A stretch of DNA of 64,000 bases. It comes from Amphiscolops sp. MND2022. Its lineage: Eukaryota. The number at the start of each line of letters is the position of its first letter. Within the stretch, counting starts at the first letter, position 1. Both the position numbers and the translations under genes were made by a program. The notes under the pieces were generated by a model. It saw nothing but the letters and a program-made list of their open reading frames with translations, made no database searches and was not told the DNA's origin. Below, piece by piece: positions 1 to 56,800 of this stretch. Location: contig OZ076409.1 in NCBI GenBank assembly GCA_964187785.1, positions 66,652,001-66,716,000 of the forward strand, in the 5' to 3' direction.

Positions 1-1260
1 ACTGATAAAGGTACTGCATTTACTTCTACAATTATTGCGGAGGTTACGCAGATTTTGGGCATCACACTCAAATGTGCAACGACAAAACACCCGCAGACAA
101 TTGGGAAATTGGAGCGAACTCATGCCTCATTGAAAACAAATCTCAAAATGGCATGTGGGGAATATCGCCGACAGTGGCACAAATACTTGCCATTAGCAGT
201 ACTGAACCATAATACAAGCTATCACGCCAGCATCGGTTGTGAGCCAACGAGAGTATTTCATGGAAGAATTCCATTTAATATTTTGGATCACAAGCTTGGA
301 AATAATCCAAACGAGCAAATTAACCCCACAACCGAATTTGCTGAAGAGATCCAAAACCGGACAAAAATCCTGATTGACAAAACAAAGCAGAACATTATGC
401 AGTCGTATATCAAGTACAAAGAATATTACGACCGCAAAGCAAAAGCCGCTCCACTAAAGGAGAACGAATACTGTTTTGTCCTACAGCCGAAAGCGGACAA
501 TCAGGGATCAAAAATTCCATTCCGCGATTACCGTTGGGTTGGACCATTTGTAGTCCAAAAGGTTTTGCCAAATGAAAACTATATAGTAAGACGGATCAAT
601 ACGAACAAAACCCAAATTTTGCATCGCATTCGTCCTAAAAAGTTTGTCCCTAATCAGCCTCTTGAGGACAATTTCCAAGAACAACAGTTGCAGCCAGACG
701 AAGAAATTGTCATTCCGCAAGATGATTTATACGTCATAACGTGGGAAACCGACTTTGGCGAGCAGCTAGTTACACGAGGCAACGAGACTATTCCGACCAG
801 CATGCCGAATGGCGAACGACCGAATGCGGCAGAAACGAATACAAATGACGTAGCCGAGAATGAAGCGGATTACATAATCACGAGTGACAAAACAAACTAC
901 GCTGACCACGCGGCGCGGAACCGGAATGAAAGATTAAATCATGACGTCACAAAAAGGAATGAAGCTAGTGAAGCGACTAGCAACAGCAAATCTGATTGGC
1001 CGAATCCGGCCGTTTACCCCAAAGGACGAGAAAAAACTTTACCGAATACGGATAAAAGACCAAAAAATGATGAAATTCTCCCAGAAAGAAATTTGACGAA
1101 TGAAAATGACGCACAAAATTCTCCGAAAAGGGGGGATGATATTATCGTGCCCGAAATATCCGAAAACGATGCTAGAAATGAAAGTCTGAGCCCTAGAGGA
1201 GGGAAATATAATCTCAGGCCTAACCCTAACCCAACATACTCAGAAGACTTTAGATACTAG
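1..1260 (+). CDS. pol: Gypsy pol polyprotein C-terminus (integrase core, GPY/F-type region, disordered tail); 5'-partial
   Basis: Frame open from base 1: TDKGTAFTS...HPQTIGKLERTHASLK (D,D35E core), WVGPFVVQKV motif, terminal GKYNLRPNP motif; no stops. Confidence 0.95.
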   Translation, partial: TDKGTAFTSTIIAEVTQILGITLKCATTKHPQTIGKLERTHASLKTNLKMACGEYRRQWHKYLPLAVLNHNTSYHASIGCEPTRVFHGRIPFNILDHKLGNNPNEQINPTTEFAEEIQNRTKILIDKTKQNIMQSYIKYKEYYDRKAKAAPLKENEYCFVLQPKADNQGSKIPFRDYRWVGPFVVQKVLPNENYIVRRINTNKTQILHRIRPKKFVPNQPLEDNFQEQQLQPDEEIVIPQDDLYVITWETDFGEQLVTRGNETIPTSMPNGERPNAAETNTNDVAENEADYIITSDKTNYADHAARNRNERLNHDVTKRNEASEATSNSKSDWPNPAVYPKGREKTLPNTDKRPKNDEILPERNLTNENDAQNSPKRGDDIIVPEISENDARNESLSPRGGKYNLRPNPNPTYSEDFRY

Positions 1261-1503: not shown

Positions 1504-4500
1504 TTAGTCCTTAGAACAACCGGCAGGAGATTCTCTGACGACGGACGAGGCTCTCGAGCGGGATCTGCTCCTCTCCATGCGCTTCCGTTTGCGGTCACCG
1601 GGCGGGACTACTGCAGGCATATCTCCAACGCTGGAAGACGTTGTCTCATCGAGGCCCACTTCACCTAATCCAGAAAGGGCGGAACGATATGACGTAAGAA
1701 GGGACTTGTAAATTCTATTCCTACCAAACTCGTCAACGGAAGTCCAGGGGTCGTATGAGGCAGATGAGACAGTTTGACTGAAGGAGGCAGAAAGCAGAGA
1801 AAACTTAGCCAAACTAGAGTCACTGATACAGAAGGCAGTGGAGTCCGGAACCCCTGACAGATAACTCTGGACGGGTAAAACCACGTCTGTGAGTCTGTTC
1901 TGATGTTTTGTAGTGTTGGCAGTTCCAATACGTACTGTTGGGTATTGAGGACTTTCAGACGTAATGCATAAACAACTCAACTTGAATAGATATAACAGAC
2001 GACTATGCTCCTGCATAAAGTCAAGATTGACAAGGAAATCAATAAGATCCGGTGATCCCTGGCTAACATCGAATGAAGGAAGAGATGAAGCCTTGAGATG
2101 GTCCAATAGCTCCACGTACTCGTCCCGGCAGGTGGACTCATTTGCTAGACTGACCCAAGACCTGAGCTGAAAGGTCCGATATAATAAGTCGAAGTGACGT
2201 AGCGCTACTTCAGTGGGCCTTTTTACCAATTTATAAGGGTCAAAAGCAGCAAGGCCACGAACAAGATTAGAGCAGAGTCCGGCCTGGTGAAGAACACCCC
2301 CTATCAGGAACTGGATGAAATTTTGGCAGTCTCGGACGAAATCATTCTTGATGGTTTCTGCGGTCTTCTGCACTGCGGACCTGTCAGATTTCTTCCCAGA
2401 ATGGATGCCTTCTGATTTTTGCCTACTAGCTTTAGCAACTTTGTTCTTCATATTCAGTCGAGTGAGGAACTCATCAACTGGGAGGAATGCCCCCTCACTG
2501 GTTTGGAAGTTTAGAAGCAAGAACCACGAATTTTCGAGAGGGATGGTATCAGGAGCATAACACCGGAAGCACAGTCTGTAGACGTAACGGGCAACTTCCC
2601 CGCAAAGATAGAAGCAGGAATCACGTCCCTTATGCAAGTTGGAGGAGAAACTAGAGTCGTCTAAAACACAAGATACTTAGGTGTATTGGTCCAAAAGGAA
2701 AATCCTAGACTATCAAAACAGACTAACAATCACTAATGAGGTGATAGAAGAATTCCAACTTCACTGGAAAGAACTCATCACAGATGAGTGACCATTCAAA
2801 GCTCTGAACCTGCAACAAAAGGTTTACGGTGCGACTTCAAGACTTCCCCGTTTAATAGGAAAAGACGAAACCTGAGTTGAGACACTTACTCTAGTTCTGA
2901 CTCCTTGGCCCAGTTGTTTGGGAGAGTGCTCGGTAAGGAAAGAGACCACGGACTTCCACTCGTCCATGAGTTCTTGACACAAGAAAGGCAGTGTAGACAG
3001 GTCTAGATCGCTCTTGGAAATAGCCTAAAGAAAAGGCGGAGCCACTGCAATAACCCGTCTAGAAACCCTTAGGAGTGCGAGTTAGTGCTACAATATGATA
3101 CGAGCGCCCACTTACTTTGGCCAGTTCGGGACTGCGCTGTATCCAGTCCTCATCGGTCAACCCGCCCAGGGAGATGACCAAGCCGCGTAGCACTGAGAAG
3201 AAGTCTATGTGGCCGAAGACACTGTAGTTCTTCTTGTGCATCAACTTGGACAGATTGAGCTGGTTGAACCTGAAGCAGCTCTGAACAGCCCGCACTGAAG
3301 TTGGGAGCTCATCTATGGTCCGGATTAGGTCGGCCGGACACCCAGAACAGGCCACTACGTCTGCCTTTGTTGAAATTGCAGACAAGAGTCGCGCCATGGA
3401 ACCTAACTCTCCAGTGAGGTCGGTGGTGGGTAGCCTACTGCGACAAGCGATGACCTTGCAAAGATATTGACCCTTCCAGAACCTCACGGACATGAAGCGG
3501 TTGGGCCCCTGGTCTTCAAATTCCAAGGCAAAGCATTGCAGACTGGAAATTTGGTCAGCGACGTCACTCATGGCGCAGTTGAAGAAATGCTGGAATATTG
3601 CCTAAAATGGACACAGACCAAATATTAATAACCCAGAAAGGGAAAAGTCCTGTGAGAAGGGAAAGCAAATAACACTTACAGTCATCCTCTCTTCTCCCCA
3701 GTCGAAGTCGCAAAGGGAAGCTTGATGGTCAGTAATGGAACTGACTTTGGCCCACATGCTCCGGAGGATGGTGATGTCGCCATAGCTCTGGATGAAATCA
3801 GCTACCATGCTTAGCTGAGTTCTTGCTCGGGACTCGGGAGTAACCAAGGGAGTAGTCCTACCTCGAACGAAATCCTCGTAGAAAGGAAAACGTTCTCCAA
3901 TATCCACTAACTCCACATGGATAAACTTGGGGAGCTCCTTGGCCAGTTCTATCTTGCTCAAGATCTTCCCATTTCTGCCTCGGACTCGGTGTTGGGTCTT
4001 GAGCGTAATTGGATCGGTACTTTTCAGATACTCGTACCTCCACCTCTGGTCCCGTCTAAGATGTTTCTCAGTTCTGTGGTGCCTGAGTATCTCCATTGTC
4101 CCTTTACTTCTAATGGAGAAATTCTTCTTACAAAGGTGACACCAGACCATGAAGGGGTTGTGGATCGGATCCGCTGGCCCAGAGATAAACGACCGGGTCC
4201 AACCGATTTTTGCGAAGAACTCCTCTCGCATTGGGACTCCACGTTGAGGTAGTCTCTTGCCCTTCGGGGTCTTCTTACTCGGCAACTTGGTCGTAGACCG
4301 CAGTGACTGTTCTCTCACCTCAGATAAAGTGATATCCTGACTGCTTCGGTCAGTTTCTTGACTACCAGTCTGCATAACTCCTGGCTGCTCTGTAGGTGAA
4401 ACAATCGGGACGTCTGTGGTTTTGACTGAAGTTTCAAAAGAGGCCGAAATCAAGGCCATTTCGCCAGCACTGTCGCTTTCTCCGAATGAGGAAGAGTCGC

Positions 4501-5629
4501 CAAGTGTGCCCCGGTCTATGGTGTCATGTCCCTCTGAATCCGTAGTTGACAAGTCACCGGTCCCGGCGTCGCTGGAATCGCTATCAACTTGCCTGTAAGG
4601 AGTCTGTGCTCTGGTCCTTGATTTGAAATGGTCAGTGCGTGATGGGGCGATTGTAGGACTGCCCCGGACTGCATCCAGGATCATTCTTTCCATAGTAGAA
4701 TGTGACATCCGAAGCGTTTCGTCAGTTAAGATGCGTAACAGGTGATACACCTGAGACTCTGTGAAGGCAACTGCTGTTTGTCCTGGTGGGAACCGAAAGG
4801 CATGTGTCTCATCGAAATAAGTTTTCAGTATGGCTCGTGCCCTTCCAGAAAGTTCAGGAGGCTGGACGTCAAAGCCTTGAGAAGTGGATGCCTGTGGGTC
4901 GGTCTGGTGCTGCCTGAAGACGGTAGTGTCAGGGCATTCACTGGTCTCTCTTCCAGATTCAGACATTCCAGGAATATCTCCATAGAGTGAAGGACATTCG
5001 GTACTGCTCGCCTCCCCGGTTGTCTTCTCAGCCTCACTCAAGTCGGTCAAGAACCGGACTTTGTGTTCCTGGGTGGGCAGCATAGGAACTTCATATACAG
5101 AAGATTCGCCATACTCGTCATCCAAGGTCCTCCTAACTGGCGGAACAACGGTCTCCGCTTCAGTGGCAGGAAGGAGCTCAGGTAATTGGGATCCAGGGTT
5201 GTTTACAACTGTTAGACCTGCCTCTAATGTGTGCAAGCTAGCTTGGGATATTCCAGCAGTCTCCACCGGTATTGGGGTGCTAGACCGAACGGGGACTAAA
5301 CTCTGGGGAACATAGTCATTAGTGGAAGCCTCAGGATTGGCCGTCATCAAATTGGGATCACTGGTAGGTGATCGTTCGTGTACTTGGCTCTGCTCGACCT
5401 CCATTTCTTGCACTTTAGCTTCTGCATAGGCATTCACGTCTACCTCACTTTCGACGCCTTGAGGAGAAATCACAGATCTGGCGATGTACGCCACACTTGG
5501 AACTGTACCTTCATTGGAAATTGTTTGCGGCAGCCCAGAAGGGCTTGATGCGTTCTCAATCTCAGAAGCCTGATTATCTAAACGAAAAGAGATAAAGTTT
5601 AGCGGTATGCTTCCTTGAAAAGTGTCCAT
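1504..5629 (-). CDS. 5-exon antisense gene, 1269 aa: disordered N-terminus + BED-like Zn finger + hAT-transposase-like domain. Exons 5629-3680, 3601-3116, 3024-2890, 2809-2728, 2660-1504
   Basis: Four short GT-AG introns (78, 91, 80, 67 nt; donors GTAAGT x3, GTTAGT; acceptors TTTAG x3, TGCAG) join three ORF-track ORFs and two small exons in frame (phases 0,0,0,1; 3810 nt). Finger WCHLCKKNFSIRSKGTMEILRHHRTEKH at ~4147-4061. Confidence 0.85.
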
Positions 5630-6683
5630 TTTACCGCGTTGGAAATCTTCCGGAAGTGTCTTGAAAATTGAATGAAGCGTGCTTTCACGCGTCTAGTTGA
5701 TGGAAACAGGAAGCGTCATGTGAACAATGTTTAGCCTTGATCAAGCTAAGCTTGTTTGAAAGAAAGAGAAAATCAAACCAACCTGGATTGGAAGACATGT
5801 TGCCGTAATGTTACTCGTACAGTAAATGCTCTCGTCGGGCGAAAGAAGCTGAGGGAAATGGCCGTGGGTGGACTGAAGTTAGAGGCCCTAGTGCTGCAGA
5901 GAGGGGATCGACAGCAGAGTTAGAGACAAAGGGAAGATGAATATCAGCTAGGAGAATCCCAGTAAGGGAAACAATTGATATATAAATAGAATTCGAATGG
6001 AATTAAAGATGAATAAAGGAATTGGAAAGTTGGAGTTCGTGGCTGAAGAAATTACCAGACTAATATTATATAGTTATTTACATATTTATAATAGTGCATG
6101 GAGTCTGCCAGCGAAATGCACAGAACAACCTCACCTTTCTACAGATTATCCAATTAATGGCCGGTTAAGGCCATTCGCCTTATTTTATTCTGCCGGGTTG
6201 TCCCATTACCCTAATTATCTCCACGCGAAATTATCGCCATTTGGAATTATTCGGGATTATTATTTTCCGCCATTTTATTATTCAATTTTACAATTTATCA
6301 AAGCTCAATTCTGATTGGCTGAAGCCCATTTTGAGAAAACTTTGCGACGCATGCCGTTAATTGCTTACAAGCGACCCGTTAATTACCCACTTGAGACTGG
6401 TGTAGTTGATATTAAAAATTCAAGCGTCATTCACACCTCTCATAGTGATGACGCCGATGAGGGGTAAACACTGAAATATCAAAGGGTGCCGATTAGTTAT
6501 GGAATTCCATTCAGGAAAGTTTACGACGGATCAGGACGACTAACCGATGTTTTAACCGCCAAATTGGAAACTTCGGAAAAGCCTTACTGGGCTAAATTCT
6601 TGAATCGGATAAATTCATTCTACCTAAAACTTCACCTCAAATCAGTTGCCTTATCAGCTTCAAAAATCGCTAAAAAACTAATA

Positions 6684-7466
6684 ATGAGTAAGTTCAACCT
6701 CTCAAGAAAGTTGTTTGACTTTGAGGAATATGAATCCGATGATTCTAGCAAATCAGTAATCTACATATCCAGTAGTGAAGAAGAATCCTCAGACTGGGAG
6801 ACCGATTGTTCGACAGATACCGAGCAGCTAATTGCCCGGATTGAAAGGGAAGTTACTTCCAGTCCCGTGCTAATCGGGGGCAGGATAATGACCATGGATG
6901 AGCCTGAAGATGAAGCGAGAGCAGGGCCAAGTACGTCTCATGTAGAAGAAGGAACGACACCGAAACTGGGCATTAAATATTTTGACAGGGAAATGTGTTA
7001 TGCCCCGCCAAGGAGAATTGAAAAGAAACGCATAGAGCTCTGTAACACAATAATACCCGTCCTAGAATCGCCAATGTCACCTCCGGAACACGAGAGAGGG
7101 CCAAGCTTGGACACTCCCCTTGCACAGTCAATCACGAGTAACTTCCATGCGTCCTACCATGTGCAAAACACAGTGCCCTATCAAAATGTCAGTGCGGTGC
7201 CTTATACGGGATGCATGGTTTGCGGCCGTTCAGTGGACTCGATCAAGAACGAGAAGGTGGAATGGTACATGCAGCGATCCACACCCAGAGATGAGCCTGA
7301 GCACATCACCAGGCTTAGGAAGGAAGCGTACGAGAACGGACTTAACGCCGGCTGTTTTCTTTTTATTACTCCCGCAGTGTCGCAGGCTGCCGCCTGTGAC
7401 GGTACGAGTGTGACAACGTCGGCAACTGGACAAGAATTCGTACCCGGAACATTACCCATTTATTAA
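6684..7466 (+). CDS. Retroelement accessory ORF3 (~260 aa from first ATG): acidic/Ser-rich N-terminus, CxxC, C-terminus inside the LTR
   Basis: ORF track 6486-7466 (GTG start); first ATG at 6684. VIYISSSEEE and GCMVCG motifs; the SxAAACDG-like peptide recurs at the start of all four LTRs. Confidence 0.7.
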   Translation: MSKFNLSRKLFDFEEYESDDSSKSVIYISSSEEESSDWETDCSTDTEQLIARIEREVTSSPVLIGGRIMTMDEPEDEARAGPSTSHVEEGTTPKLGIKYFDREMCYAPPRRIEKKRIELCNTIIPVLESPMSPPEHERGPSLDTPLAQSITSNFHASYHVQNTVPYQNVSAVPYTGCMVCGRSVDSIKNEKVEWYMQRSTPRDEPEHITRLRKEAYENGLNAGCFLFITPAVSQAAACDGTSVTTSATGQEFVPGTLPIY

Positions 7467-9235
7467 TTGGGATAATTTACAAACTTAGAACTTTCATACT
7501 GTTTTGTTATTCAATACGTAATATGTTTGTTGATGTTGTTAGCTTCGATATATATGTACTTGCACATGTAAAATTAGTCTGTTAAAAGTCACATTTGAAG
7601 ATTCAAATAGTGTATTTGTAACTTCAAAAGATTGAAAGGCGCTTTGCTATTGTAAACGTAATACGTGACAATGTAGCTGTACAGTAGAAAGGAAACGAGT
7701 TCAAGTGAACGAAACTCCTATTCCGGAGACGTCACTTGAGCTCAACTCCTTAGCCAATCACGTTGCTCCTTTTCTATAAGTAATACCACTTTGATTATGT
7801 AATGGCCGAGTATGGCCAATTGACTCAATAATTGTGCCTTTTAGTCAAACGGCCGGTACCGGCCACTTCGTTGGAATAGCCTGTATGTGTGTTAATTGGG
7901 TGTACTAATCGTAAATTACTGTAAATGTACTCTTAATAATGAATGAAAGCCCCAATGCCGCGCAATGAGCTTAATAAACCTAGTACTCACTCAAAAGCCG
8001 AATAAGGCTTTTTCCCTCTTTTATTACAGTGCTGAAATAATAAACCGGATTTGTCCATCTTCGGCATTGTCAGAAAGTGTGTTATTTTAATAATGCTGTA
8101 TTATTTTAAGCAGAACTGATCATGTAATATTTAATCTAGTTCCTACTCACGTTGAATAATAGGCGCGTGGTAACGCGTGTCACAAGCACATTCCGAAGAG
8201 ATGCCTTTTGCATTCCTTCAATAGACATTGGTATTTGTTGACAGGATGATGTTGATGATGTTTATAAACACGACACTTGAAGGTGCTGCTTGTGTACCCT
8301 GTTAAATATCATTCTTTTGATGTTGAATTCCTAAGGACTACCCTGAAACTAGGAATTTTCCCAATCGGGACATCACCCTAAAATATCTGCTTTGAAGTGT
8401 TGAACACCCTACCCGATGCTGTAATAACACTTGTCACATGACCCGTTGAGGCCATAGTCATATGATGTTTTCTTGATCAAAGAATTTGTGGAATGTGAGT
8501 GTGATCTTTTTAGGAGTATATATAGCTATATTTCTGTAAAAAAGGACACAAATCCCATACCTTTACTTTGATAAAGATTGAATTAATACAACGACTTTTG
8601 TCAGTTTTCCGGTTTTGATAATTGAATTATTCAACCGGGTTCTGTCTTAATGCCTACCACTAGAAAGCAAAAGAAAGCGAGAAAGTCTAGGGGACTTGAG
8701 ATGTTATCAGATATTGAAAATCTGGATATCATGTTAGGCGAAAACCATTTTGGTGCACGAGAAAGAGAAGGTAGCCTGAATAGCAATTTACCTAGGAGGT
8801 CTAGGAGTTTTGCTAGTAATGAGTCTGACAATGGGGACGGGAACGGAAGTAGACCCAGGGGAAATATTGAACCTAGGATGAGTGCCGAGTGTGATCGCAA
8901 TTCTATCACAGGTGATTCTAGCGCTGAAATAAACAGATTGTCTAGCGAACTGAACTCTCGTATTTCACGGGAAATGGATGAGATGATGAATTCCGTAAGT
9001 GTCCAAATACAGAGAGCCATAAACGACGCGATAAGTACTCAAGTACTTCCTCAAATCCAAAATGTTATAATGGCCGAACCAGGACACAGGATCAGAAAGG
9101 GATGGGACGTTCCGGCCGAGAGACCGGAACCAAATTCCGAAGTTCAGCGAGACCTTAACGCAAAGAGTAGCTTAAGAAACGAACAATATGTGAATCAATT
9201 GAACGGTGATTACCCTGACCTAAATGTTCATGACA
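7378..9235 (+). repeat. 3' LTR (1858 bp) of the cargo-bearing Gypsy element
   Basis: Starts TGTCGCAGG like the solo LTRs, ends CATGACA; contains a TATA-like box (~8516) and the MPTTRKQKK ORF. Confidence 0.9.
8650..9235 (+). CDS. LTR-encoded N-terminal ~195 codons of a putative gag ORF (open through the LTR end)
   Basis: MPTTRKQKKARKSR...LSDIENLDIMLG...RISREMDEMMNSVSVQIQRAI...VLPQIQ has homologues in all four LTRs; the frame is open across the terminal CA. The gag identity is inferred from position only. Confidence 0.6.
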
Positions 9236-9299
9236 CTAATTTTTTTAAAGCTTCTATTACAACACTTTTGGAGTATTAATAATTAAACGCTTAGTTTTT

Positions 9300-14637: not shown

Positions 14638-16353
14638 TGTCGTGTGTACAATCTGCACTTTCCTCATGCAGACAAGTAAGGCTCACTCCTTGAACAACTC
14701 CTGATTTTCAGACTAGGATTATCTTCGGAGTTACGTTCCGGTTTCTCGGCCGAGACGTTCCATCCTTTCTGTGTCATTTGTCCAGAACCGGCCCTGAGGG
14801 AGTTCTGAATATGGGGCAAAACTTGATTGCTTTTTGCATCGTTAATAGCCCTTTGGATTTGAACACTGACACTGTTCATCACTTCATCCATATCTCTCGA
14901 GATCCTCAAATTAAGCACGCCTGATAACCTATTAAACTATGCACTAGAGTCTGTGCCAGCTGAGTTGTGGCCATAATTGGCACTGTTACTCTATCTATTT
15001 TCCCTAGAATTAGGGTAACTGTCCTCTTCGTTAGTTTCTGGTGCATTGATATTTGGACTACCAGGTCTCCTAATGGAGTCACCAAACTCACTTCCTTCCC
15101 TTTCCAGATGATTGCCTCCCAACATAATATCTAGATTTTCTATGTCTGATAACATTTCTACTCTTCTAGAATTTCCAGCTTTCTTCTGTTTTCTAGTAGT
15201 AGGCATCAAGAAATCCTGATTGTAATATTTTATTAGGAAATCAGGTTTGGATATTTTAAGCGTGTGAATAGTCGTAGAACCAAACAAATTGTGTCCCTCC
15301 CAGGAGAAGTAGGGGTATATAAATATATCCCTGAGAGATTGACTCTAACAATTTTACATGAACTGTATAATTAAAATAACATTCCAATCGCGTTTTGTTG
15401 AACAGAGTTTTACATAGTTCTAGTAGGTAAATTCCATAAAAGGCATGTGATCAGCATCTTGATACTGCACTTGGGTACATAGATCGACCCACTCAAGATT
15501 TTGACCTATCGGGGACTGAACATATTTGAAACAGTTAATAGCATAGGTTGTAAACAATCACGAACATCAAAGTTTTAGCACCTAAATGTCGGAAATATGC
15601 AACAACGAATTCTTGTACACGGAATTAAGTTAGCATCCGGTTAAATACATTGATATACATGATCTCATAAAGGCACTGAGTTGACCTAAATCAGCCATTG
15701 TACATAAACTAGGCAATATTGTCCTGCTTTGATCGGTTCAGATATTGGTTTTTATTAATGTCAGCAACGATTAAAACATTTAACAACTCTTCAATTAACA
15801 CCGTTTATTCACAGTATTCGACATTTCAAGACAGTTTTAAGTACTTCTCAGGGAAATACACAGCACTACTAGTTGAATAAAGCAGCCAATCTGATAAAAG
15901 TGAAACACGCGGAATCCGGCCATTTAACTAGCGTCCCTGTGAGTGGTGGCCCAATTAAGTCAATTAGCCGCATCCAGCGAAATAATGTACTGCTCTGAAA
16001 TGATATTATTAATACTGCACTGTGTTTGGTCAGCTATAAGCCAACAAGTTACGACGCCGAGAAAGGACATTTTAGCACTCGAACACGTTTCCTTTGCATC
16101 GCACATTATTCAATTTACTTCTTGCATTTCAACTTTACATTGCTCCAAACTACCAAATCAGCTCTTTGAACAACAGTTAACAGACTAATACAAAACAAGT
16201 CTACGAGAATATTTAAACAAACTAAGTACTAGTTTTATGAGAGAGATTGTTTTTAGTTTCAATATCAGAAAGTATGGTGTGTTCCAGGTGCAGTGTTTTG
16301 TCCATTTGCGGTTGTCGTGATCGCTGTGCCATCACAGGCGGCATCCTGCGACA
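14638..16353 (-). mobile_element. Solo LTR (1716 bp) of the cargo-bearing Gypsy family
   Basis: TG...CA ends, 5-bp TSD CTGTA (14633-14637 / 16354-16358), frameshifted MPTTRKQKK ORF (ATG 15206). Confidence 0.92.
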
Positions 16354-18014: not shown

Positions 18015-19205
18015 TCAATCCGAAATATCATCAAAAGATGGTAATGTGCTGGTCCTGGTTGCTTCGTAGTTGGAATCTCTGTTATTAGGAGCATAGGAAA
18101 TTTGGTTATTGTATTCATTTTGATTACGCTGATTATAGAGAACATTTCGCGCCGTAGCTGGGCGTTTTTTCCAAAGACATGGGCATATTCTCTTTAACTT
18201 GGGAACAACGATTCCTCGAAACTCGAACCATGTCCATGCATAGAGAAACGGATTCAGGGCGCAATTAACCAGAGGTGTAAGTTGGACCACTTGATCGAAC
18301 CAATGCTGCATAAGTTTTTCTTCTAGTTTGATATTAGCATTGCCGATTACGTAAACATACCAGAAGATTTGGTTCGGGACCCAAGCGAGAATGTAAAAGG
18401 TCACTATCAAGGTCAACCGGATGCAAAGTGACCTCATAAACGATTTCGCACATTGATATAGAAACTCAGACTGAGGGTCAAAGTCTCTGCGACCTTCATG
18501 GTGTCGTTTCGCCATTGCAGTTTCTCGGAACAATTTGAAGTAGCAGACAAAAACAATTATCAAGGGGATTATCATCACCAATGAAATCTGCAAGACCAAA
18601 CCTATGTATTTAAGAAATTTGAAATCAGTGCAACCGAGAACACACTGGACTTCGCCATCTCGTTTCCGAATGTAGAAATTAAAGGGGCTGTCGTTAAGAA
18701 TAACCAAACCGAGAACCCAGCTGAAAACAAGCAGACAACGGATGCGACATTTAGTCCCAAACAGAAAGGTGTACCATTTGGGTTTCAAGTCACCCTTAGA
18801 TGCACCCAAAAGTTCCATGGTAAGAAAGACAACCAACCACGAGGATGCGCATGTTAGGGTCAAGACGAGGAAGTTTGAAAGGTAGATTCTGCATATTATT
18901 TGACCGCCTATGCCGTCTGGGATTCCTGCTTTTGCTGGGTAACATATTTGGGCAATCATGCCTAGATTTTGAAGCATGTCCGTGAAAGCTAAGTTTTTCA
19001 ACACTCTGAGGTGATTGGTGAGGTTCGATGTTGAAAAAAGAACAAAATAAATGAAAGCGTTCATGATGATACCAAAAACACCGCCGGCCAGCATGCACCA
19101 AAAAAATCCATCGTGGGGATCGTATTTTCCATAAATAACCAAAGCATCATCGTCATCATCAGTTGTCTGTCTTTCAAAGTGGAATAAACCTGATTGAAGT
19201 ATCAT
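18015..19205 (-). CDS. Intronless class A (rhodopsin-like) orphan GPCR, 396 aa
   Basis: Seven hydrophobic segments; TM2 NLAFTD, TM3 Cys and ECL2 Cys, TM6 FYILAWVP, TM7 NCALNPFLY; the DRY position reads ELL. Confidence 0.92.
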   Translation of the reverse strand: MILQSGLFHFERQTTDDDDDALVIYGKYDPHDGFFWCMLAGGVFGIIMNAFIYFVLFSTSNLTNHLRVLKNLAFTDMLQNLGMIAQICYPAKAGIPDGIGGQIICRIYLSNFLVLTLTCASSWLVVFLTMELLGASKGDLKPKWYTFLFGTKCRIRCLLVFSWVLGLVILNDSPFNFYIRKRDGEVQCVLGCTDFKFLKYIGLVLQISLVMIIPLIIVFVCYFKLFRETAMAKRHHEGRRDFDPQSEFLYQCAKSFMRSLCIRLTLIVTFYILAWVPNQIFWYVYVIGNANIKLEEKLMQHWFDQVVQLTPLVNCALNPFLYAWTWFEFRGIVVPKLKRICPCLWKKRPATARNVLYNQRNQNEYNNQISYAPNNRDSNYEATRTSTLPSFDDISD

Positions 19206-20876
19206 TGTTGAATCGTAAAAAGCAAAACAAGGACTCTACCAGTCGAAGGAGATGATAGCCGCTGAGAAATATAAATGTACAATCCGATATTTGATTAAAA
19301 TCGGAATTTCAGAAAATATAGAATTGTGAAAGAATCATTCAACTGGCAAAACAGGTGCCGAAGTTCTTGAACAAAACATTTTTGACGTTCGTATGAATCG
19401 AATGAGCAAATAGAGAGGGTTGAACATTCTTGAATGACCCGAATGAGCAATTAGATGTGGACTGAAGCTATCTTAGTTCAACTCTTTTGCTTGGTTTGTT
19501 AGTGAATTTATCAAACGACAAGATTCGAACGAAACCATCCCAGCGTCGATTCTCATTTGGTGACGCCATAGCCACTGAATGTATTCAAGAAACTCGTTTG
19601 TCAGCAATTTCATTGATTCGAAAGTTGGTTTTACTTAATAGCATAAAATATGCATGACGTGTAACGGAAGAATGAAGATATTAACGACACAAGGCTTCAT
19701 TCTCAAAAGGAGAATCATTCAAATTGTTCAGCCGTATAATGCTTCCATTGTTATTTGTCATTCGTCGTACGCGTCTTTGCACTTAATATTCAAAATGTAA
19801 CCAGATTTTTCCACAGAGGAACCCTCCAAAAACTCGATTGACTCTCTGTTCAAACCCGGAAATATTGTGGAAGACCATATGAAAATGCGAGAGGCGATGA
19901 GGCATTTTTGGCATTTTTGAAACATTAAGGATATTGATTTTAACTAAACTAATTCTCACTTTTGAGTGTGGAATATATATTTTTGCAAAAGTGGACTGAA
20001 TTATTTTCATTGGGCAACCTTTTGGGCAGGCAGAAAGAGCCACAAGTAAAATCATCAAATCAAAGAAATTCGCTCACAGCGCAAAAATTTTTGAATCTCA
20101 AGTTATAGAGATTCAGTAACAAAAGGTTCTAATATAACCAAAACGTGAGAAACCTAAACAATATGCAACCTACATTTAAATGTTTCTTAAAGGGCTTTGT
20201 TGCTTGACTCCATAAAATTTCATGAAGGTTTTTGGAAAAAAACTAATGAAATCGAAAGTAAGTATGAATTCTTTAATGTTAAAAACATCTAGTTTCAAGT
20301 AGCTCTATAAATGAGTTTTCAATCCTCAGAAGTCACTCAAAACAACGTCATATTTAATGTATTTTAGTTAAATTGGTTTTCTTGGACCTCACAAGTTTGT
20401 GAGAACACCCAGGAGAAGTAGAAATTGTTTTTTAAGTGCTTGGATGACGTATCCGGACTTGGAGTGTGCCGGTTACTCGTCCCGGAGCTCTTAAATGAAC
20501 TCATGCAAAACAACGGGAAAAATAACATTAGATTTAAGAAAACTATTGAATTGACAACCTTTATTAACAGGCTGAAAGCTGATTTTCTACCTGGTATTCA
20601 GTTGTTAAACATATGAAAGTTTGAGTTCTTTGCTTAGTGAATAAAGTCGAAAAATTACAAAGAGTTTAAGTTCCAAATTATGTATCTGATACTAAAAAGT
20701 TTCAATTCTTAGTAAGTCTTGATCTGATCAACTTCGAAGCTTCCGTGGATGAAATACTTGCAACCGAACAGGTTGTCACTGTGTATCGATCGTATGTTTC
20801 TCACTTCGCTTCTCGAACACTATCTCGATCATGTTGATCACGTCATACAGCTATCATGACGTCACTGTTGATTACG

Positions 20877-44800: not shown

Positions 44801-47800
44801 ACAGTTGTTTCAACGTTTCCTTTTATGTACTTCAGAACTATTTGAGCAATAAACTACGAACGATGGACTACGGCAAGCTGAGATTTTTTTCACGAGAAGG
44901 CGCTTCCATTGAAGAAAAACGATTTGAAATGGTGAGAAATATCTTGATCATAGAACCGGATGTTTTGAATCTCTGTCTTGATTTGATCAAAAATTTCCCA
45001 ATGCAAAATGTTTCTGAATTATCTGACCAGTTTGAAGGTAACATTTTGGAAGATGTCACTTCTGGAAACCCAAATTATACTTATTTTTATCAAACTTTAA
45101 TGGAAATTGGGGTTATGTACCTATTCGACGAGGCCATTGAAATTGAAAAAGACAAAACAAAATCGCAGATTCATCTATACATCCAAAAATGTGCTTGGAA
45201 ACGGAAGAAGTTCAGCACAAGGAAGGTTCAACCGCAGCTTCGGGAGAAAATGCTAGCTGCAAGTTTGTTGTGTGCTGAGACTAGGTTACTACAATTGGCT
45301 GTGAAATTTAAGCACTTACAAGGCTCGGCCGTTCCACGTATTCTAGAAAAACAGCCAGTAGAAAAAAAATCTAAAAAAGATTTGATTCCAGCTCTATTAT
45401 GGCTAATTGAAGACGAAGATCTAGAACTAGAGAATGAGATCCTCGATTTCGCATTGAATAGAATCAAAACAAGCCAACGTTTGAGCTCAAAAGTTTCTTT
45501 TGAGGGAGAGAACTGGGAAAAACAAATGGTGGAAAATGTGAATTGTTTGACCACAGGCAAATGGCCAGAATTGAACATGGAAACTCTGAAGGGTGATGTC
45601 AAAAAAGCGCAAGCTTCTCAAAAGATGCAAAATGAACCAGAGAACAAAGTACAGCAACAATTAACGAACCAAACAGAAGAAAATTGCGATGACAGAGTAG
45701 CTTCTGGAGCCAAAGGTGCCGAAACAATTGAAAAAACGCCAGGCCAAAAAAGAGCGGTAAGTAAAAGTAAAAAATGGAAAACTCCCGAGGAGGAAAATGG
45801 CGAAACACCTCAAGAACAACGTCAGAACGGCGATCAAATGACATCTAGATCCGAAACTCTAGAGAAACCCGAATGTGAGAGACCCTCGTCAGGTCGAAAA
45901 AAGGCAACAGGGAAAAGTAGGGAGAGAAAAAAGCCGACTGATCAGAAACGGACGCTATCTCCGCAAACAGCATCTAGATCTAAGACTCCAGAAATGCCTG
46001 AAAATATTTTGGTTTCTTCGAGTAGAAAAAGCTCAGCAGAGAAAAGCAAGAGAAAGAAAAGCCCCAAAAACCAAGTTGACGCAGCAATTCGGGAACCAGA
46101 AACGAATGATGACCACTCGGAGTCTGGAAACAAAAGCAAAAAATCATCCGGAAAAAATTTCGATCCTCTTGCTGAATCCAACCAAAACAACCCTCGTAAT
46201 AAAGGTGGGAGGAACAAAAGACCCGAAAAACAGGTGAAACAAGCAAGCGAACAGTCGGGTGGGAAAATTGATTCAAAAAAATACGGCGGCAATCAAGAGC
46301 CGAAACAGCCACGACTCTCATCCTTATCGTCTGTTTCTTCTGCTGGAAGCGATCTGGTTTGTCGCGAACTTCAGACAAGACTGGCAACACTTCGGGAGCA
46401 AAGTGGGGATCATGTTTCAAAGGTGCCGAAAGTGAAGCAAAATAAAAAACTTATGAGTCAAAAAGATTGGGAAAGGGCTCGAAAAGAAGCAACCTTGAAA
46501 CGAAGACTTACACCGGATGAAAAATTTGAATTGCAAATAATGGATGCTGAACTACAATCTCAGCTGGATGGTATAAACATGTAGTTCAAGAGTAAAACAT
46601 TGTTCATTAATGGTTGAATAAAATGATGAAAGAACTTTTAATGAGGAATTCGACGTCTAGTTGTTAATCAAGCGAAGATTTTGACTAGAGGAATACTCCA
46701 CAGGCTTGATTGAAATGTTTTAGTAACTAATGTTGCTTTTCTTGAGAATTATTAGTTATCCATCACCGCTTTGTATCGGGCCTGAAATTTTGAGTCAGTC
46801 AAACGAGCAGTTTTCATCTTGAAAGTGTGACAGGATCACTTGAAAAACTTATTGACAAAAAAATCATTCTAAAGTACTGAGAGTTGTACATTCAAAACAG
46901 TGAAGCTACTTTCAACCCTTTTTGGTCAATTTCTCCTATCGAAAATTCAAAAATTTGCAAAAGTTCCGTAGTCGATGAAACAGACGTTCTTCTTTTTTGA
47001 GCTCTTAAAAGGACTTTTTGAGTCCATACTGCAGAGCTGTGGGTTACTATCTGCTTTTCTGTGAGTTATGTTATTTTTCTGACGTTGTTTTGAACTTGAA
47101 AACTGAAACAATTGTCACAATTTGTCAATTATGTAATTGTGTCTTTCACCATAAGCTAACAATTCATGCTGAGATTTTTAGCTTTTCAATCAATTCTTAT
47201 CGAGAACGTAAATTTACTTTCAATTTTTACAGCTATGTTCATTTTTTTTGAAATTACTGTCCGGGATATCCAAAATGCAATAGTTGGAAAGCCGAAAAAA
47301 ATTTTATAGTAGAATTTCGGAAGTTTTTGGAAGTACGTACATCTTACTAGATGAAGTTTCCACCGAAGAACAATATGAAAAACTTCGCTTTATGTACATC
47401 GAAGCGAAAGTAGATTTTCTTCTTTTCCTTTTTAAAAACCTGGGGAACTTACATGTCAAACTTCAAGTCTATAAAACTGAAGAAAATTGAAACTGAAAAA
47501 AACTGGCGATCGGTTATGAAAATTTCTTGCTCCAAGTAACTTTCAATATCAAATTTTCGAAAACGTCTTTTCTGTGTGTATATTTCAGATGTATATTTGC
47601 TTCACAAACATTTTAGAACCATTTCCGTTCAAGAAGCCCCTTAACCACCGAGATAGTTTCAGCTTTTTTGCCACAAACATTCAGAAGAGAGTCAAAATTT
47701 GAATAACTTTTGAAAAATGCCCAAAAAGATAGCTGTAAGAGCCACGTCCCGCGGTGTCTCTCAAATCACCAACGGACCGTGAGTCCTTTTTCAATATTTT

Positions 47801-50800
47801 TGTTTTCAAGCCAGATGAGTTTTCCCTATTCTCTTGACTACTAGGGGACAAACAGGCCTCAGTGTCCCCGTTCCCTGAAGATGACATTGAACTCACAATG
47901 TTTTGGATTTCTGGGATCACCCTTTCTGATATAGCAGTGCTAATTGCTCTGTTTATCTGGTTATGGACCATGGACATCATGGAATCCATTTCTTGAGACA
48001 ATCTGAGGTTGAATTTATTTGTAAAAGTCTCAAAGGACTGTCTAACTTCGTTGCGCCCCATTGGCTCATTTTCTTGTACAGAGCTATAATTGTTCCTTTA
48101 GTACTCATTTCCTTCGTAGTCTCCCTGGACAGAGGACTGTTTGATTGCATCTGCTAATTCTCTCTCAACAGGATTTTCACTCCCATTACCTAACATTACG
48201 GGCACGTTATCTATATCGGACATCATGTCCATTTCTCTAGACTTTCTTGTCTTAGCTTTCTGTCTTCTTGTGGAAAACATAAATGATTGTACTAGAGGTA
48301 ATATTTAAATTATTCTAGTAATCAGTTATTAACAACGAAACGGTTAATAATTTGTATCTGAGTATTATCAAATTTGGTGAACTGATAATAATATCGCTTG
48401 TCGAATTGTGTCCCTGAGGACAGCTAGTCCTTGGTATTTATAGTTAGGGCGGGGGTGATGATCTAAATTCAGAGTGTCATGCATCTCTTTTTAGAATATA
48501 AAGGCTAAAAATAGCACCGTGACATCATCATCGCGCTAAATATATACATCAAAGAGCTAGCGGTAGTTGAATATTTAAATGGCCTCCATGGCTACAATGA
48601 CAATGACAGCCAAGAATTACATATGTTTACATGTAAAGGCAACAATTCGTGCATCATACTCTATAACATGTCTTTTCTAGCCGTTTTAGACTAAAAGCAA
48701 CATAAAATGGTATCTAAAATAATAAGCAACAACATTCTAATTTTGTAATTTCAGAGTACAAGAAGGATCAAGTATCCACTTCGTCTTATTACAGCAACTA
48801 GTAGAGCAGCTTTCAATCATTTAAAAGAATAGCATCGTCGGCTTGCGTCAAAATAGACACGCTGTCCTTTATTTATTTGCAAGCTGCAAGTGTGAAAGCC
48901 AAACATGGCGCTCGCACAAGAATAGCCATAGCTGTTTGGTTGTAATAATAATGTACTGCACTGTGATTAGTTAAAATCAATTTGGACTGCTTGGCAGCAA
49001 CGACAGGAGAGGAAATATTTGAACTCGTTTCCTCTACCTGTACGCCTTGGTGTCCAATTTCTCAATTACCTTATACATTTACATATTGAAATAATCAAAT
49101 GTATGTTTTACATAACAATTCCTGAATAATTATTGCAAAACATTTCAGATTTAATATCGTAAAGGCCATAAGTAGAGTGTTATATATGTAAAATCAATTA
49201 TAATGAAACAAGTTTGTAGTTTAACTTTCATGGCTTTTGGACTAGCAGTCTTTCCTTCAGTTTATTGGGAGAGTACCTGGAAGTTCTTGATAGCAGCTGT
49301 AACTTATGGTATAGTAGTTTCCATCGCAGGCGGCAGCCCGCGACAATAGCTAATTGTATATTCGAAAAAGGCAATTGTGCCCTCATTGAGACAGCAATAA
49401 TTAAAAAGAAGTGACGAGACATATATAAATTTGAAAAGAAGACCCATAATTGTGATGAGCTAGGGTGAATAAATCAAGTTCCATCATTCAGAAATGGGAG
49501 AAAAAAAGTGTTGACTAGAGGTAATTCAATTCTCCACGTAAAGTTTTTATTCGACCCATTTTTGTTCTTTCGTTTTTTGAAAACTGTGGTAATTGAAAGT
49601 GTGCAATTGTTTGATGAGGTGACTAACTTGCATCAACTCGTAGCAGGCGCGGCAGATCTGAGACGAAAAGGTGCACACGAGGTATTGTGATTTGGCCAAG
49701 AATTGCATATCCGTGAGCAGCCAGAGAATGTTTCCAGCGGCGTACCTGTTGGATCCAGACCCAGCCTTCTTAGCTACTCCTGAGTCCCCAAAAAACTTGA
49801 AGTCAGAGAAGTTTTTGGCTTCTTTCTCCAAAACAGAAGGCTCGTCAGTGGCTGAATAAAATCATCATGCAAATATTAAACTTCGAAGGAGGAATATTTA
49901 AATTAGGCCTTGAAGCTAAATCCTTTAAAAATATTGATTTTAAAGTTTTATCAACCTTGTATGCCCTGGGGCTTCTTTTGAAATTGATAATCCTCCTAAC
50001 ACATCTAAAGCATAGGTAGAGCATTGATGTCAAATACACTTTTGTCACGTTTTCAAAGTCCCCCCCCCCGATATTTTTCTTAAAAATCTTGTCTACAAAC
50101 GTGATTTTTAGGATTTTGAACAGAATAATGAGACATTGTGTCCCTCTGGTGTCATTTCGAGATGTACTAACCAAGGTAGATATGGTTATCAATATGGTAT
50201 ATGGTACCGTTGAGCCGGTGTCTAACTGGCTTCACAAATTCCATGTACTCCCACAAATCATGGAATTTAGCCTCGCTCCTTTTATCAGACCTTCGCACGT
50301 GCAGTCCAAAATATGAGTCAGAGATGTTGTATCGTGTTTTTAGTTGGTCCACGTGATTCTGCAGACAGGGATTACCAAGACATAAAGAAAATCGACTTTC
50401 AAGATGTTCACATGTTTTGAGAAATCCCCTTTGTCGTTTCAAACCATTTCTTTTATCCAAAATGGACTAAAATACATTGAATCCAAATTTAAACGTTTGA
50501 TTGGTGATCCCTGAAGTTTTCCATTCGGTCTGGTGTTGTAGTAAGTGAAGTGACCCGCGTACCAAACAGAGGGTGCGGAGTGGCACTGATAGATTTTGCT
50601 TGCCCACTTGGAGGGGATGCTTGGCAGGTGTTGGGGTGGCACAGGCGCCCTGGATACCAACGAGGCTGCCATGGGGATATGTATAACGCGGTCATTGGAT
50701 AGGTACGGGTCAGATCCTATGCCTGAAAAACATGAAAATTTAGACAGGCAGAATTTGATACGAATGCCATAATCCTGATGAGATTTACACTAATTATTTT

Positions 50801-53800: not shown

Positions 53801-56800
53801 ATCGCCTTTGATTGTTTTGAACCATCTAACTCAACAAATTCTTGAAAACTGTACTCAAATAACAAGAATAACCTACATAAATTGGAAATTTTTGGAGTGT
53901 TCGACAATTTTTGAGTCAAATTAAAGCACGTTTTTTTTTTTTCAGAAATTGGCATTTATCCCATCAAAAAGCCCACCGGACAACGCTTTCAGTTGTTGTT
54001 GAATCGTTTTAGAGTTCTAATCTATGAAAAGGTTGATACTTTTACAAAAAAATTGCGTTGTAAATTACAAAAATGTAAAAAAAACAAAAGATTTTTTGAC
54101 TAGTTTGGGGTCTTTGTGGCAATTTTTTTTACAAAACTGCATTTATCTCCGCAAACAACCCTATTGGACAACGAAATCATTCGTATTTGAAGGTATGTTA
54201 CGTTCCTATCCATGAAATTTTTAGAAACTTGACAAAAGTTGCATGAAAACGTGAAAAATTGGTACATTTGAAAGTTTTTGACATTTTCGGTCGCAAATTG
54301 TGCGTTTTTTCATTACAAAACTTCGTTTCTTTCCTAAAAAAGCCTTCGTGACAAACAAATTGTTCCTTGTTGAACTTCTTTGAAATTCGAAGTGTAAGAC
54401 CCTTCGAGAGATTCGAAGTGTAAGAGAGGTCCTGCGGTGTCTCTCAAATCACAAGCGGACCTTTAGTCATTTTTTGTATTTTTAGTTCTCAACCCGGATG
54501 TATTTTCCCTATTTCCCTGACTCCCTGGGGACAAACTTGTCTCAGTGTCCCTGTTCCCTGAAGATGACATTGAACTCACAATGTTTTGAATTTCCGGAAT
54601 AACTCTTTCGGATATAGCAGTACTTATAGCCCTCTTTATCTGATTGTGAACCATGGACATCAATGAGTCCATTTCTTGAGACAATCTAAGATTAAATTCA
54701 ATCGAAAAGGTTTCAAAAGGTTGTCTAACGTCATTTTGCCCGAGTGGATTATTTTCGTAGTCAAATTCTCTATATTCTTTTCTTTGGCGTATATCGTCTT
54801 CGGTGTCACCCTGAACTGAAGATTGCTCAATAGCGCTTGCTAGCACCCTCTCTATGGGATTATCATTTCCGTTTCCTAGCATTATGTCTAAATTGTCCAA
54901 ATCGGACATCTTGTCCATTTCTCTTAATTTTCTAACTTTCGCTTTCTGTCTTCGTTTAGAAGGCATAAATGTTTCTATTGCGGAAATGTTTGAAATATCC
55001 CAATAATTTTATCAACAAAAGAGCTGATAGAGGTTGTTTCTAGAGTATAAATGCACAAATAAGTGTAGTTGGTGGAGTCTCATTATTTTTGTCCTCAAGA
55101 CAATTGCGTCCCCCTTATTTATACTCATCACAGCATGACAGTCTAAATTTAGGGCGTCATGAAGCTATTTTTAGAATTAGAAAGCTAAAATTAGCATCGA
55201 GTCATCACACTTGTTCTAAAAATAGACTACAAAGCCTATCGGCAAGAATTGATTACATGGACAGGTAATCCATAACATCATTTCATCATGATAACATTAC
55301 ATATATTTTCATGCATGTTCAATTCTACATGTATTTTAACTAGTAACATGACACTAAGCCTCACAGGCTGAAGGTGTACAAAATGGCAACAATTCATGAT
55401 TTTTTGAAACATAGTACAAAACGTCCACGCTGTCTATTTGGCTAGCTTAGCCTGACGAGTTAGCACAGTAAAGGCAGCGCATGGCAAAGTGGACATATTG
55501 TCCTTCAATTTACTCTTGAATAAATACACCGATGAAAGCTGAGTACGGCGTTAGCACAAGATTAGCCATACCGGCCTAGCTAAATTAATAATGTACTGCA
55601 ACGTGATTGGTCAATATTTGAAATGGACCGATTGTCCTCAGCTACAGGCGAGGAAACACTTTGAACGCGTTTCCTCTACCTGTACGCTTCGGTGTCCAAT
55701 TAGTAGCACATCTAATTATATTTACATGTTTTAAAATATAACTAACAAACAATACGGCAACTAACTGTATGCAGCTACATGTTATAACATAAAACAGTAA
55801 TACAAAACAGTTTTATTGTAAAAGTTTCAATTATGTCTGCTTTGGACTTCTTGGACTTCTTGGCTCGATTGTCAGCGATTCCTCAATCTAGTGGAAATGT
55901 TCCGGGTAAAGCCCTGCAATAACCATATGCGACCGTGTACCAGTTGCCATCGCAGGCGGCCGCCTGCGACACGAAGCCACCAAGGTTTTCCAAAATTACA
56001 CAAAAAATGCATAAAAGTTTCAAAAATCTAAATTTTCAAGTGTTTTGTCAATTTCGGTTCGAATTTGATGCATTTTTTCAACACAAATCGCTTTTATCTC
56101 TTCAAGGAAGCCTCCCGGACAACGAATCTTTTCCTTGTTTAACGTTTTTGACATTCTAAGCCACCAAGTTTTTCGAAAAACAGACAAAAATTGCATAAAA
56201 TTTTCAAAATTCTGAATTTTCGAGTACTTTTGTCATTTTGGGTATGGATTTGAGGCAAGATTTCTTTGAAAATTGCATTTACATCTTTCAAAAAGCCTCT
56301 TGGATAACATTTGTTTCCTCTTTGGATTGTTTTCAATATTCAAAGCAAGGGAATTTATCGATAATTTGACAAAAATTGCCCAAAATTGAAAATTTTGCAG
56401 TTTTTTTAAACTATTTTTGGGGTCATTTTGGGTCATTCTGGGGTCTTTGAGGTCAACCAAAAAAGTCCAAAAATCTCGACAACCACATACCGCATGATTC
56501 TAATTTTACATCAGTTGAATTCTATTGGTGAAACTCTTTAGCTAGGATATAAATTTCATTCTGGGCAAGTTTTGTAAAAAAAACCGTTTGATTCAAATAT
56601 TTTCCTTTTCCATGTAAAATATGGACGGGAAATAGAAACAAGCCGGGAACGGCCCAAGTCGGTGCCATATCTAAGGCTCAAAAAACTCGAAAACCACTTT
56701 TTCTACAACTGGAGACAACAAAAGCTCTCAAAAAACTAAAAATTGAGAAAAAAAAATCCGAATTTTTTTGAATTTTTTTTCGAAGTTTCCGGTAAGTCGC

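Follow-up and report, generated by a model that had tools for sequence, protein, structure and literature searches.

Our results show that a young clade of Ty3/Gypsy retrotransposons in Amphiscolops sp. MND2022 sets the left end of its LTR exactly although the polypurine tract (PPT) expected before the 3' LTR is missing. We use C clade, or C-type, for the element whose 3' LTR begins at position 7378 of the window (the whole stretch of 64,000 nucleotides analysed here) together with its relatives with a CCCGCAG-type junction, and sister clade, or G-type, for families G, H and N, which have a purine run at that place. A preliminary description of the window had suggested that this family defines its U3 end without a PPT, and the exact ends of the C clade bear this out; because there is no PPT and the U3 end is nevertheless exact, the standard purine-tract rule does not apply to it. 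We lean towards the view that plus-strand priming in the C clade takes place where it usually does, from a short GC-rich piece of RNA that would survive RNase H behind a U-tract.

The window element is a Ty3/Gypsy member, with direct TG...CA LTRs, a 5-bp target site duplication (TSD), a PBS (primer binding site) and pol in the order PR-RT-RH-IN (Pfam: aspartyl protease, RVT_1, RT_RNaseH, Integrase_H2C2 and rve). Its total length is 16.2 kb and its TSD is CTAAT. The window does not reach its 5' LTR, PBS, gag and most of pol, which are situated further upstream; Table 1 lists the features inside the window. The three solo LTRs that had been used to place the LTR start at 7378 are all real and each has a 5-bp TSD, but since they belong to diverged subfamilies the boundary was fixed again with the cognate 5' LTR. 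This copy lies 14.3 kb upstream, outside the window, and its alignment starts exactly at 7378 and ends at 9235, with 13 differences in 1858 positions, so that the LTR does not begin further upstream beside a purine run. On the plus strand, a PBS of 12 nt comes after the 5' LTR with a spacer of 0 nt, and this rules out the opposite orientation, in which the PBS would be on the minus strand. In the genome, 767 sites match the T-arm/acceptor pattern complementary to the PBS, and a tRNA-Leu(CAG) was called by ARAGORN at one of the four PBS-matching loci checked. The start of gag lies about 590 nt into the LTR and its frame runs on through the LTR end and the PBS, so that both LTR boundaries are coding in this lineage.

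Table 1. Features of the window element and of related LTRs, in window coordinates
Feature	Position	Strand	Evidence or remark
End of pol (integrase C-terminal part)	1..1260	+	
Antisense, apparently intron-containing gene resembling hAT transposase	1504..5692	-	no conserved acidic residue in core exon
Sense 3' ORF, first ATG at 6684, 260 codons from it	6468..7466	+	no Pfam match
CTTAAC ("branch-point-like")	7341..7346	+	Leu-Asn codons, wobble positions free
U-rich, weakly pairing tract, -22 to -11, encoding F-L-F-I	7356..7367	+	putative U-box, by analogy (PMC5766924, PMC10085805)
Frozen block, -9 to -1, with GC clamp CCCGCAG (7371-7377)	7369..7377	+	conservation; putative plus-strand primer
3' LTR, 1858 bp, TGTCGC...TGACA	7378..9235	+	cognate 5' LTR 99.3% identical, same start base; TSD
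Predicted 10-bp hairpin, base at LTR nucleotide 1, favoured on plus strand	7378..7401	+	z -3.8
gag start inside LTR	8650..9235	+	in the 5' LTR the frame crosses LTR end and PBS
Right copy of 5-bp TSD, CTAAT	9236..9240	+	element flanked by CTAAT
Solo LTR of related subfamily	14638..16353	-	TSD TACAG
Solo LTR of related subfamily	47734..49345	-	TSD GCTAT
Solo LTR similar to sister clade	54419..55971	-	TSD CTTCG

Some further observations concern the element and its PBS. One C-type and one G-type copy (L189 and L203) have a longer PBS, complementary to about 18 nt of tRNA-Leu, which likely records plus-strand synthesis that had proceeded further into the tRNA. The PBS-matching tRNA-Leu 3' pattern also forms a long tandem array with a period of about 296 bp at G000:C8 from about 35.59 Mb. 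Between protease and RT (residues ~353-434 of L031:6044-10000) there is a weak dUTPase-like match with an E value of 0.13, below the cut-off.

The absence of a PPT in the C clade is real. The junction reads as previously given, with CTTAAC at 7341-7346, a T-rich tract, CCCGCAG at 7371-7377 and TGTCGC at 7378, and purine runs in the 20 nt before the LTR reach a length of 2 and no more in all 30 closest copies (the best 30 of 40 among the matches listed), of which 29 have CCCGCAG and one CCGGCAG. The last 12 nt contain 4-6 purines in the C clade, and purine content at C junctions falls at the 3rd-31st percentile of the upstream 800 nt, i.e., below background. The possibility that other intact copies have a PPT here therefore fails within the clade but is partly realized in the sister clade, where an 8-purine run ends at the LTR. 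Purine tracts are present at 27118-27129 and 34308-34317, as had been stated for other elements of the window. The tract at 1125-1136 was considered as a central PPT and rejected, since it occurs in only 11 of 20 C copies.

The C clade is young and recently active, with exact ends despite the missing PPT. For this analysis, 20 C-type and 20 purine-run junctions were hand-picked so as to cover varied motifs. They come from the first 100 listed among 1203 matches to a junction pattern that required G at -1 and several T, the listed matches all being on one contig; the window copy and its neighbour bring the C-type copies to 22. A 5' LTR was found within 16 kb in 19 of these 22, and all 19 start at the same base, without upstream homology. 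Among the 16 copies that could be scored for a TSD, 13 have a perfect 5-bp duplication and three agree in 4 of 5 positions. The LTR pairs of two C-type copies are identical, the C-type copies form one RT branch with full support, and the D-E-D-D acidic residues of RNase H are present in the five C rows of the alignment. A search for LTR-LTR junctions with a retained primer, which is a partial test, gave 13 matches, none of them with an LTR of the same family upstream. Four of the 13 have a 7-nt GC-rich spacer and were considered as retained primers, but they are ordinary 3' junctions whose codons mimic an LTR end.

Two side features of the C-type population were also seen. A frequent subfamily (L161 and L165) has a shortened internal region, with LTR starts 5.9 and 9.4 kb apart, and longer LTRs; it is possibly non-autonomous, and its hairpin is weakened, yet its TSDs are perfect. 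Junctions are repeated in tandem at 1.5-kb and 2.6-kb spacing, and two junctions stand one element-length apart (G000:C1:47790850-47797061, 32614815-32619965 and 63722079-63736455), which suggests arrays and tandems with shared LTRs.

The junction overlaps coding sequence. The sense 3' ORF reads ...GLNAGCFLFITPAVSQAAACDG... across the LTR boundary and continues 89 nt into U3; its 120 listed homologues are all unnamed and were left aside in judging polarity. We compared 15 C-type and 20 G-type representatives, less than 88% identical, drawn from 99 junctions that passed a frame filter. In the C codons from -30 to -3, second positions are 85% identical and third positions 41%, so silent sites are near saturation. 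Pairwise identity within the C clade is 0.22-0.45 at eight four-fold sites upstream, 1.0 at silent sites -5 and -2 and 0.86-1.0 at five silent sites inside the LTR, and it is down to 0.22-0.38 after +25. Constraint at the nucleotide level is thus confined to about -9 to +25 across 15 diverged subfamilies, and the frozen sites -5 and -2 among saturated neighbours indicate a cis-element in the ~9 nt before the LTR, at the position of a PPT. One old, diverged copy, with an LTR pair ~86% identical, has changes at both wobble positions.

The sister clade, in the same genome, shares with the C clade the PBS, the ORF frame, the U-tract, the AG and the hairpin, and its RT is ~84-87% identical, but it has GGGGGAG in place of CCCGCAG, in the same frame and behind the same T-rich codons. 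Its silent sites -8, -5 and -2 have majority values of 0.89-1.0, and since a similar interval is frozen in both clades, CCCGCAG and GGGGGAG occupy the same site. A pol tree was built from 20 rows with families S and T as its root, leaving out rows with broken pol (G16 may be recombinant). It groups C and G+H as sisters within the purine-run group (93.7/97), so the G-run was likely lost in the C clade. Junctions were also obtained from 18 of 20 more distant elements, taken from the first 100 listed of 4090 RT matches. The pre-LTR ends are GC(G/A)GGAC in K, GG(G/C)GCCC in T, G(C/T)GGCCC or TTGGCCC in S and CCCGGAG in V, and longer lists agree; the final dinucleotide is CC in 6 of 6 S/T copies and AC in 4 of 4 K copies. 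An 8-purine run that stops 3 nt short of the LTR is seen in some T copies, so family T is not PPT-less in the strict sense. Positions -4, -3 and -1 are G or C almost throughout the sampled families, -8 is mostly A or T, and the frozen block of S/T and K is shorter and largely explained by codons. By these ends, the deeper lineage is not bound to purines either.

What most of these families have in common with the canonical PPTs of the window is a step from weak to strong RNA:DNA pairing at the boundary. The step was calculated with the Biopython RNA:DNA nearest-neighbour table as weak steps from -22 to -10 against strong ones from -9 to -1, intervals that were chosen after the sequences had been seen, and it was compared with the 95th percentile of the upstream 800 nt. 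It reaches at least this threshold in all 20 distinct C junctions, all 23 of G/H/N, all 4 of K, both of T and the single one of V, as well as in the three canonical PPTs of the window, two of which are from one family; only 1 of 3 S junctions passes, in seven of eight interval choices. Over the eight choices the medians were similar and the result held, but the widest let only 12 of the 20 C junctions pass.

In the priming that we favour, the U/A-rich tract would hinder cuts just downstream and help to position RNase H, while the G:C clamp would stay annealed and favour a cut before the U at +1, which the hairpin starting at +1 may sharpen; RNase H could thus make a short GC-clamp primer without a need for purines. 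Since the 3' ORF is read through the site, such a primer must double as codons, which is likely why purines were dropped and pairing strength was kept. Findings on HIV-1, Ty3 and Ty1, in the passages of the cited papers that bear on this point, make a U-tract with a GC clamp workable as a purine-free primer site. The HIV-1 PPT is described there as showing no inherent RNase H resistance, with a U-tract that hinders downstream cleavage and a G-tract proposed to act via stronger pairing (PMC5766924), and the Ty3 RT as cleaving 10-12 bp downstream of weakened base pairs (PMC5371799). The U3 end is set by the 3' end of the PPT, and PPTs are said to lack a consensus (PMC3185511); the T/U-box upstream of the PPT matters in retroviruses and Ty1 (PMC10085805). 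C-rich tracts are not tolerated by every RT, since changes in the HIV-1 G-tract are reported to abolish priming or extend the U3 end (PMC13332604). The clamp, of 7-9 nt, is also shorter than the primers given for Ty3 (12 nt) and HIV-1 (15 nt). We infer its primer role from position and conservation, and the frozen bases could equally serve integrase or another factor instead.

The preliminary description had read the junction as a 3' splice site ending at the LTR, with a branch-point-like motif, a pyrimidine tract and CAG, and on this point our comparison disagrees. Of the 15 subfamily representatives only 5 have a yTnAy branch motif, and the positions of this motif vary freely. The T-rich tract consists of Phe-Leu-Phe/Leu codons that, like the AG, are common to the C clade and the purine-run sister; its free wobble positions are mostly A (10 of 15 at -11 and 13 of 15 at -8), with a pyrimidine at -17 in 11 of 15, and the window copy is more pyrimidine-rich here than most relatives. 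What looks like a splice site is for the most part protein-coding sequence. If CAG were a used acceptor, the 3' end of the released intron or the spliced RNA could fix the U3 start, and the freezing of CAG in the C clade, including its wobble A (14 of 15), the pyrimidine-rich last 20 nt (11-14 of 17) and a link between the debranching enzyme and Ty3 cDNA levels reported in PMC5371799 would agree with this. Splicing at 7378 would, however, cut the conserved 3' ORF, and no spliced-type join from a donor to the LTR was found among 102 LTR starts screened, a partial test on a set that includes ~9 true junctions. AG stands directly before the LTR in 21 of 22 C copies and, as GAG, in the purine-run clade, whereas K, S and T have CC or AC; since AG is not common to these PPT-less families, a splice acceptor is removed as a lineage-wide mechanism. 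As a mechanism in the C clade alone it is formally possible, and we regard it as very improbable.

The bases before 5' and solo LTRs were looked at separately. AG was considered there as a retained trace and rejected, since it precedes 18 of the 102 starts (including the ~9 true junctions) but AT and AC are also common. The frequency of all three fits a target-site preference for A at that position; A stands two bases before the 5' LTR in 49 of the 102 starts of the same set, and the family has an apparent preference of this kind.

The element also carries cargo that bears on how its cDNA ends might be processed. The antisense ORFs resemble hAT transposase by language-model features, and the predicted fold has Hermes as its first match with an E value of 0.002, above the tool's line of 0.001; a sequence search of their profiles against solved structures gave nothing significant. 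No Asp or Glu is invariant or near-invariant in the core exon across 27 rows, and the last antisense ORF has one near-invariant Asp. The hAT-like catalytic residues have apparently been lost, and as the core exon is without a conserved acidic residue, its product is unlikely to cut a cDNA end. The gene has GTAAGT donors at 3679, 3115 and 2889 and is kept in families K, S and T at ~20-25% identity. Elsewhere in the window there are a large degenerate tandem repeat array (37193-40552) and, on the minus strand at 18015-19235, a 406-codon frame that looks by eye like a seven-transmembrane receptor.

Other ways of setting the U3 end have to be weighed against priming at the clamp. The plus-strand hairpin at LTR base 1 might refold behind the polymerase, so that the hybrid ends at the boundary and is cut there by its shape, and the upstream bases would need only to stay paired. 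The hairpin (z -3.8) has its base exactly at the LTR start, and 23 distinct LTR starts taken together have 90% of cells paired, with 43 G.T against 6 A.C; both sides have changed at pairs 8-17 and 9-16 in family K, and some T and S copies form the stem in a register shifted by one codon. Against this, the sister clade with its purine run has that hairpin too, and the stem is weak in a subfamily of C that keeps exact ends and in several K, S and V copies (z -2.0 to +0.7). A structure derived from a set of sequences is bound to be favoured by slid controls on that set, the starts of LTRs are conserved in any case, being integrase sites, and PMC3601003, in the passages concerned, reports stem-loops close to PPTs in Sire elements and HIV. 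We think this unlikely for the C clade. A wider claim, to which we give slightly more credit but which is still doubtful, is that priming from a purine tract has been given up throughout the lineage (thousands of copies, with RTs 67-100% identical), the hairpin at LTR base 1 marking the RNA/cDNA cut and the primer site thereby becoming free coding sequence. If true, a left LTR end set by structure would amount to plus-strand initiation without a sequence-defined primer tract.

It is also conceivable, and we hold it decidedly unlikely, that priming occurs upstream, at a purine run near -61, at the tract 1125-1136 or at random fragments, and that integrase or another nuclease then trims the end to TG. 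Of the 22 C copies, 20 have a run of at least 8 purines near -61 (Arg-Lys-Glu codons); the end of pol contains a PPT-like tract in 11 of 20, and the element carries a gene with a transposase fold; but the -61 run follows codons and its wobble positions vary, the pol tract is absent in 9 of 20 copies, including one with identical LTRs, and the transposase-like core exon lacks a conserved Asp or Glu. Extended ends are reported to lower integrase processing in HIV-1 (PMC13332604, in the passages cited), and no left end with retained upstream sequence was found, whether of 6-20 nt (5 pattern matches) or of ~40-80 nt (4 pattern matches), all matches being ordinary junctions and each pattern catching part of such events. 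That the C clade is a passenger or decayed lineage, which lost its PPT after insertion or was copied by recombination, seems to us hardly credible. Some tandem arrays do share LTRs, but each dispersed copy has a TSD of its own and an LTR pair that is nearly identical, the clade forms a separate RT branch with full support, and the motif stays frozen beside saturated silent sites. The independent TSDs contradict the idea, which could come back only with systematic mis-assembly.

LTR retroelements are taken to require a PPT, and detection tools score it; annotation tools often fail to call one. The C clade suggests that PPT-based annotation may misjudge such families as defective. In the open literature, searched by title and the start of the abstract, no natural PPT-less LTR retrotransposon lineage was found. 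How RT chooses the PPT among potential primers is still debated, with purine geometry on one side and pairing strength and slippage on the other. The C clade and its sister, with ~85% identical RTs, G-to-C exchanges that remove purines and keep strong pairing, and recent copies in both, are a natural and directly testable pair for how RT selects a PPT.

The C clade shares with Ty3/Gypsy elements of the Metaviridae type, such as yeast Ty3, the TG...CA LTRs, the 5-bp TSD, the tRNA PBS, gag followed by PR-RT-RH-IN and the RNase H residues. The 3' PPT of HIV-1 overlaps the nef reading frame, and HIV-1 G-tract mutants resemble the C clade in losing a purine G-tract inside an overlapping reading frame. 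In the passages of the papers cited, Ty3 has a 12-nt all-purine primer tract (PMC5371799), whereas the C-clade site is poor in purines and protein-coding. With the U-box or T-box and G-tract of retroviral, Ty1 and Tf1 PPTs it shares a U-rich stretch upstream, strong G:C pairs by the cut and U or A at +1 (PMC5766924; PMC10085805); unlike them it has no A-tract, its strong pairs are mostly rC:dG, and its A at -2 departs from the G or C that HIV-1 is described as preferring. An inverted repeat at the 5' end of U3 beside the primer site recalls the PPT-containing stem-loops of Sire elements and HIV, but there the stem spans the PPT, with the PPT in the loop (PMC3601003), and the C-clade stem lies wholly inside U3. 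A search of the LTR, of the 400 nt that follow the PBS and of the 1.2 kb that precede the junction gave no long-range partner for the clamp at a position common to C copies. The HIV-1 G-tract mutants, as described in the relevant part of PMC13332604, lose priming and persist as 1-LTR circles without detectable integration, whereas the C clade integrates with exact ends. By its pol the C-clade element is an ordinary Ty3/Gypsy retrotransposon, and its PPT-less, coding primer site is the variant.
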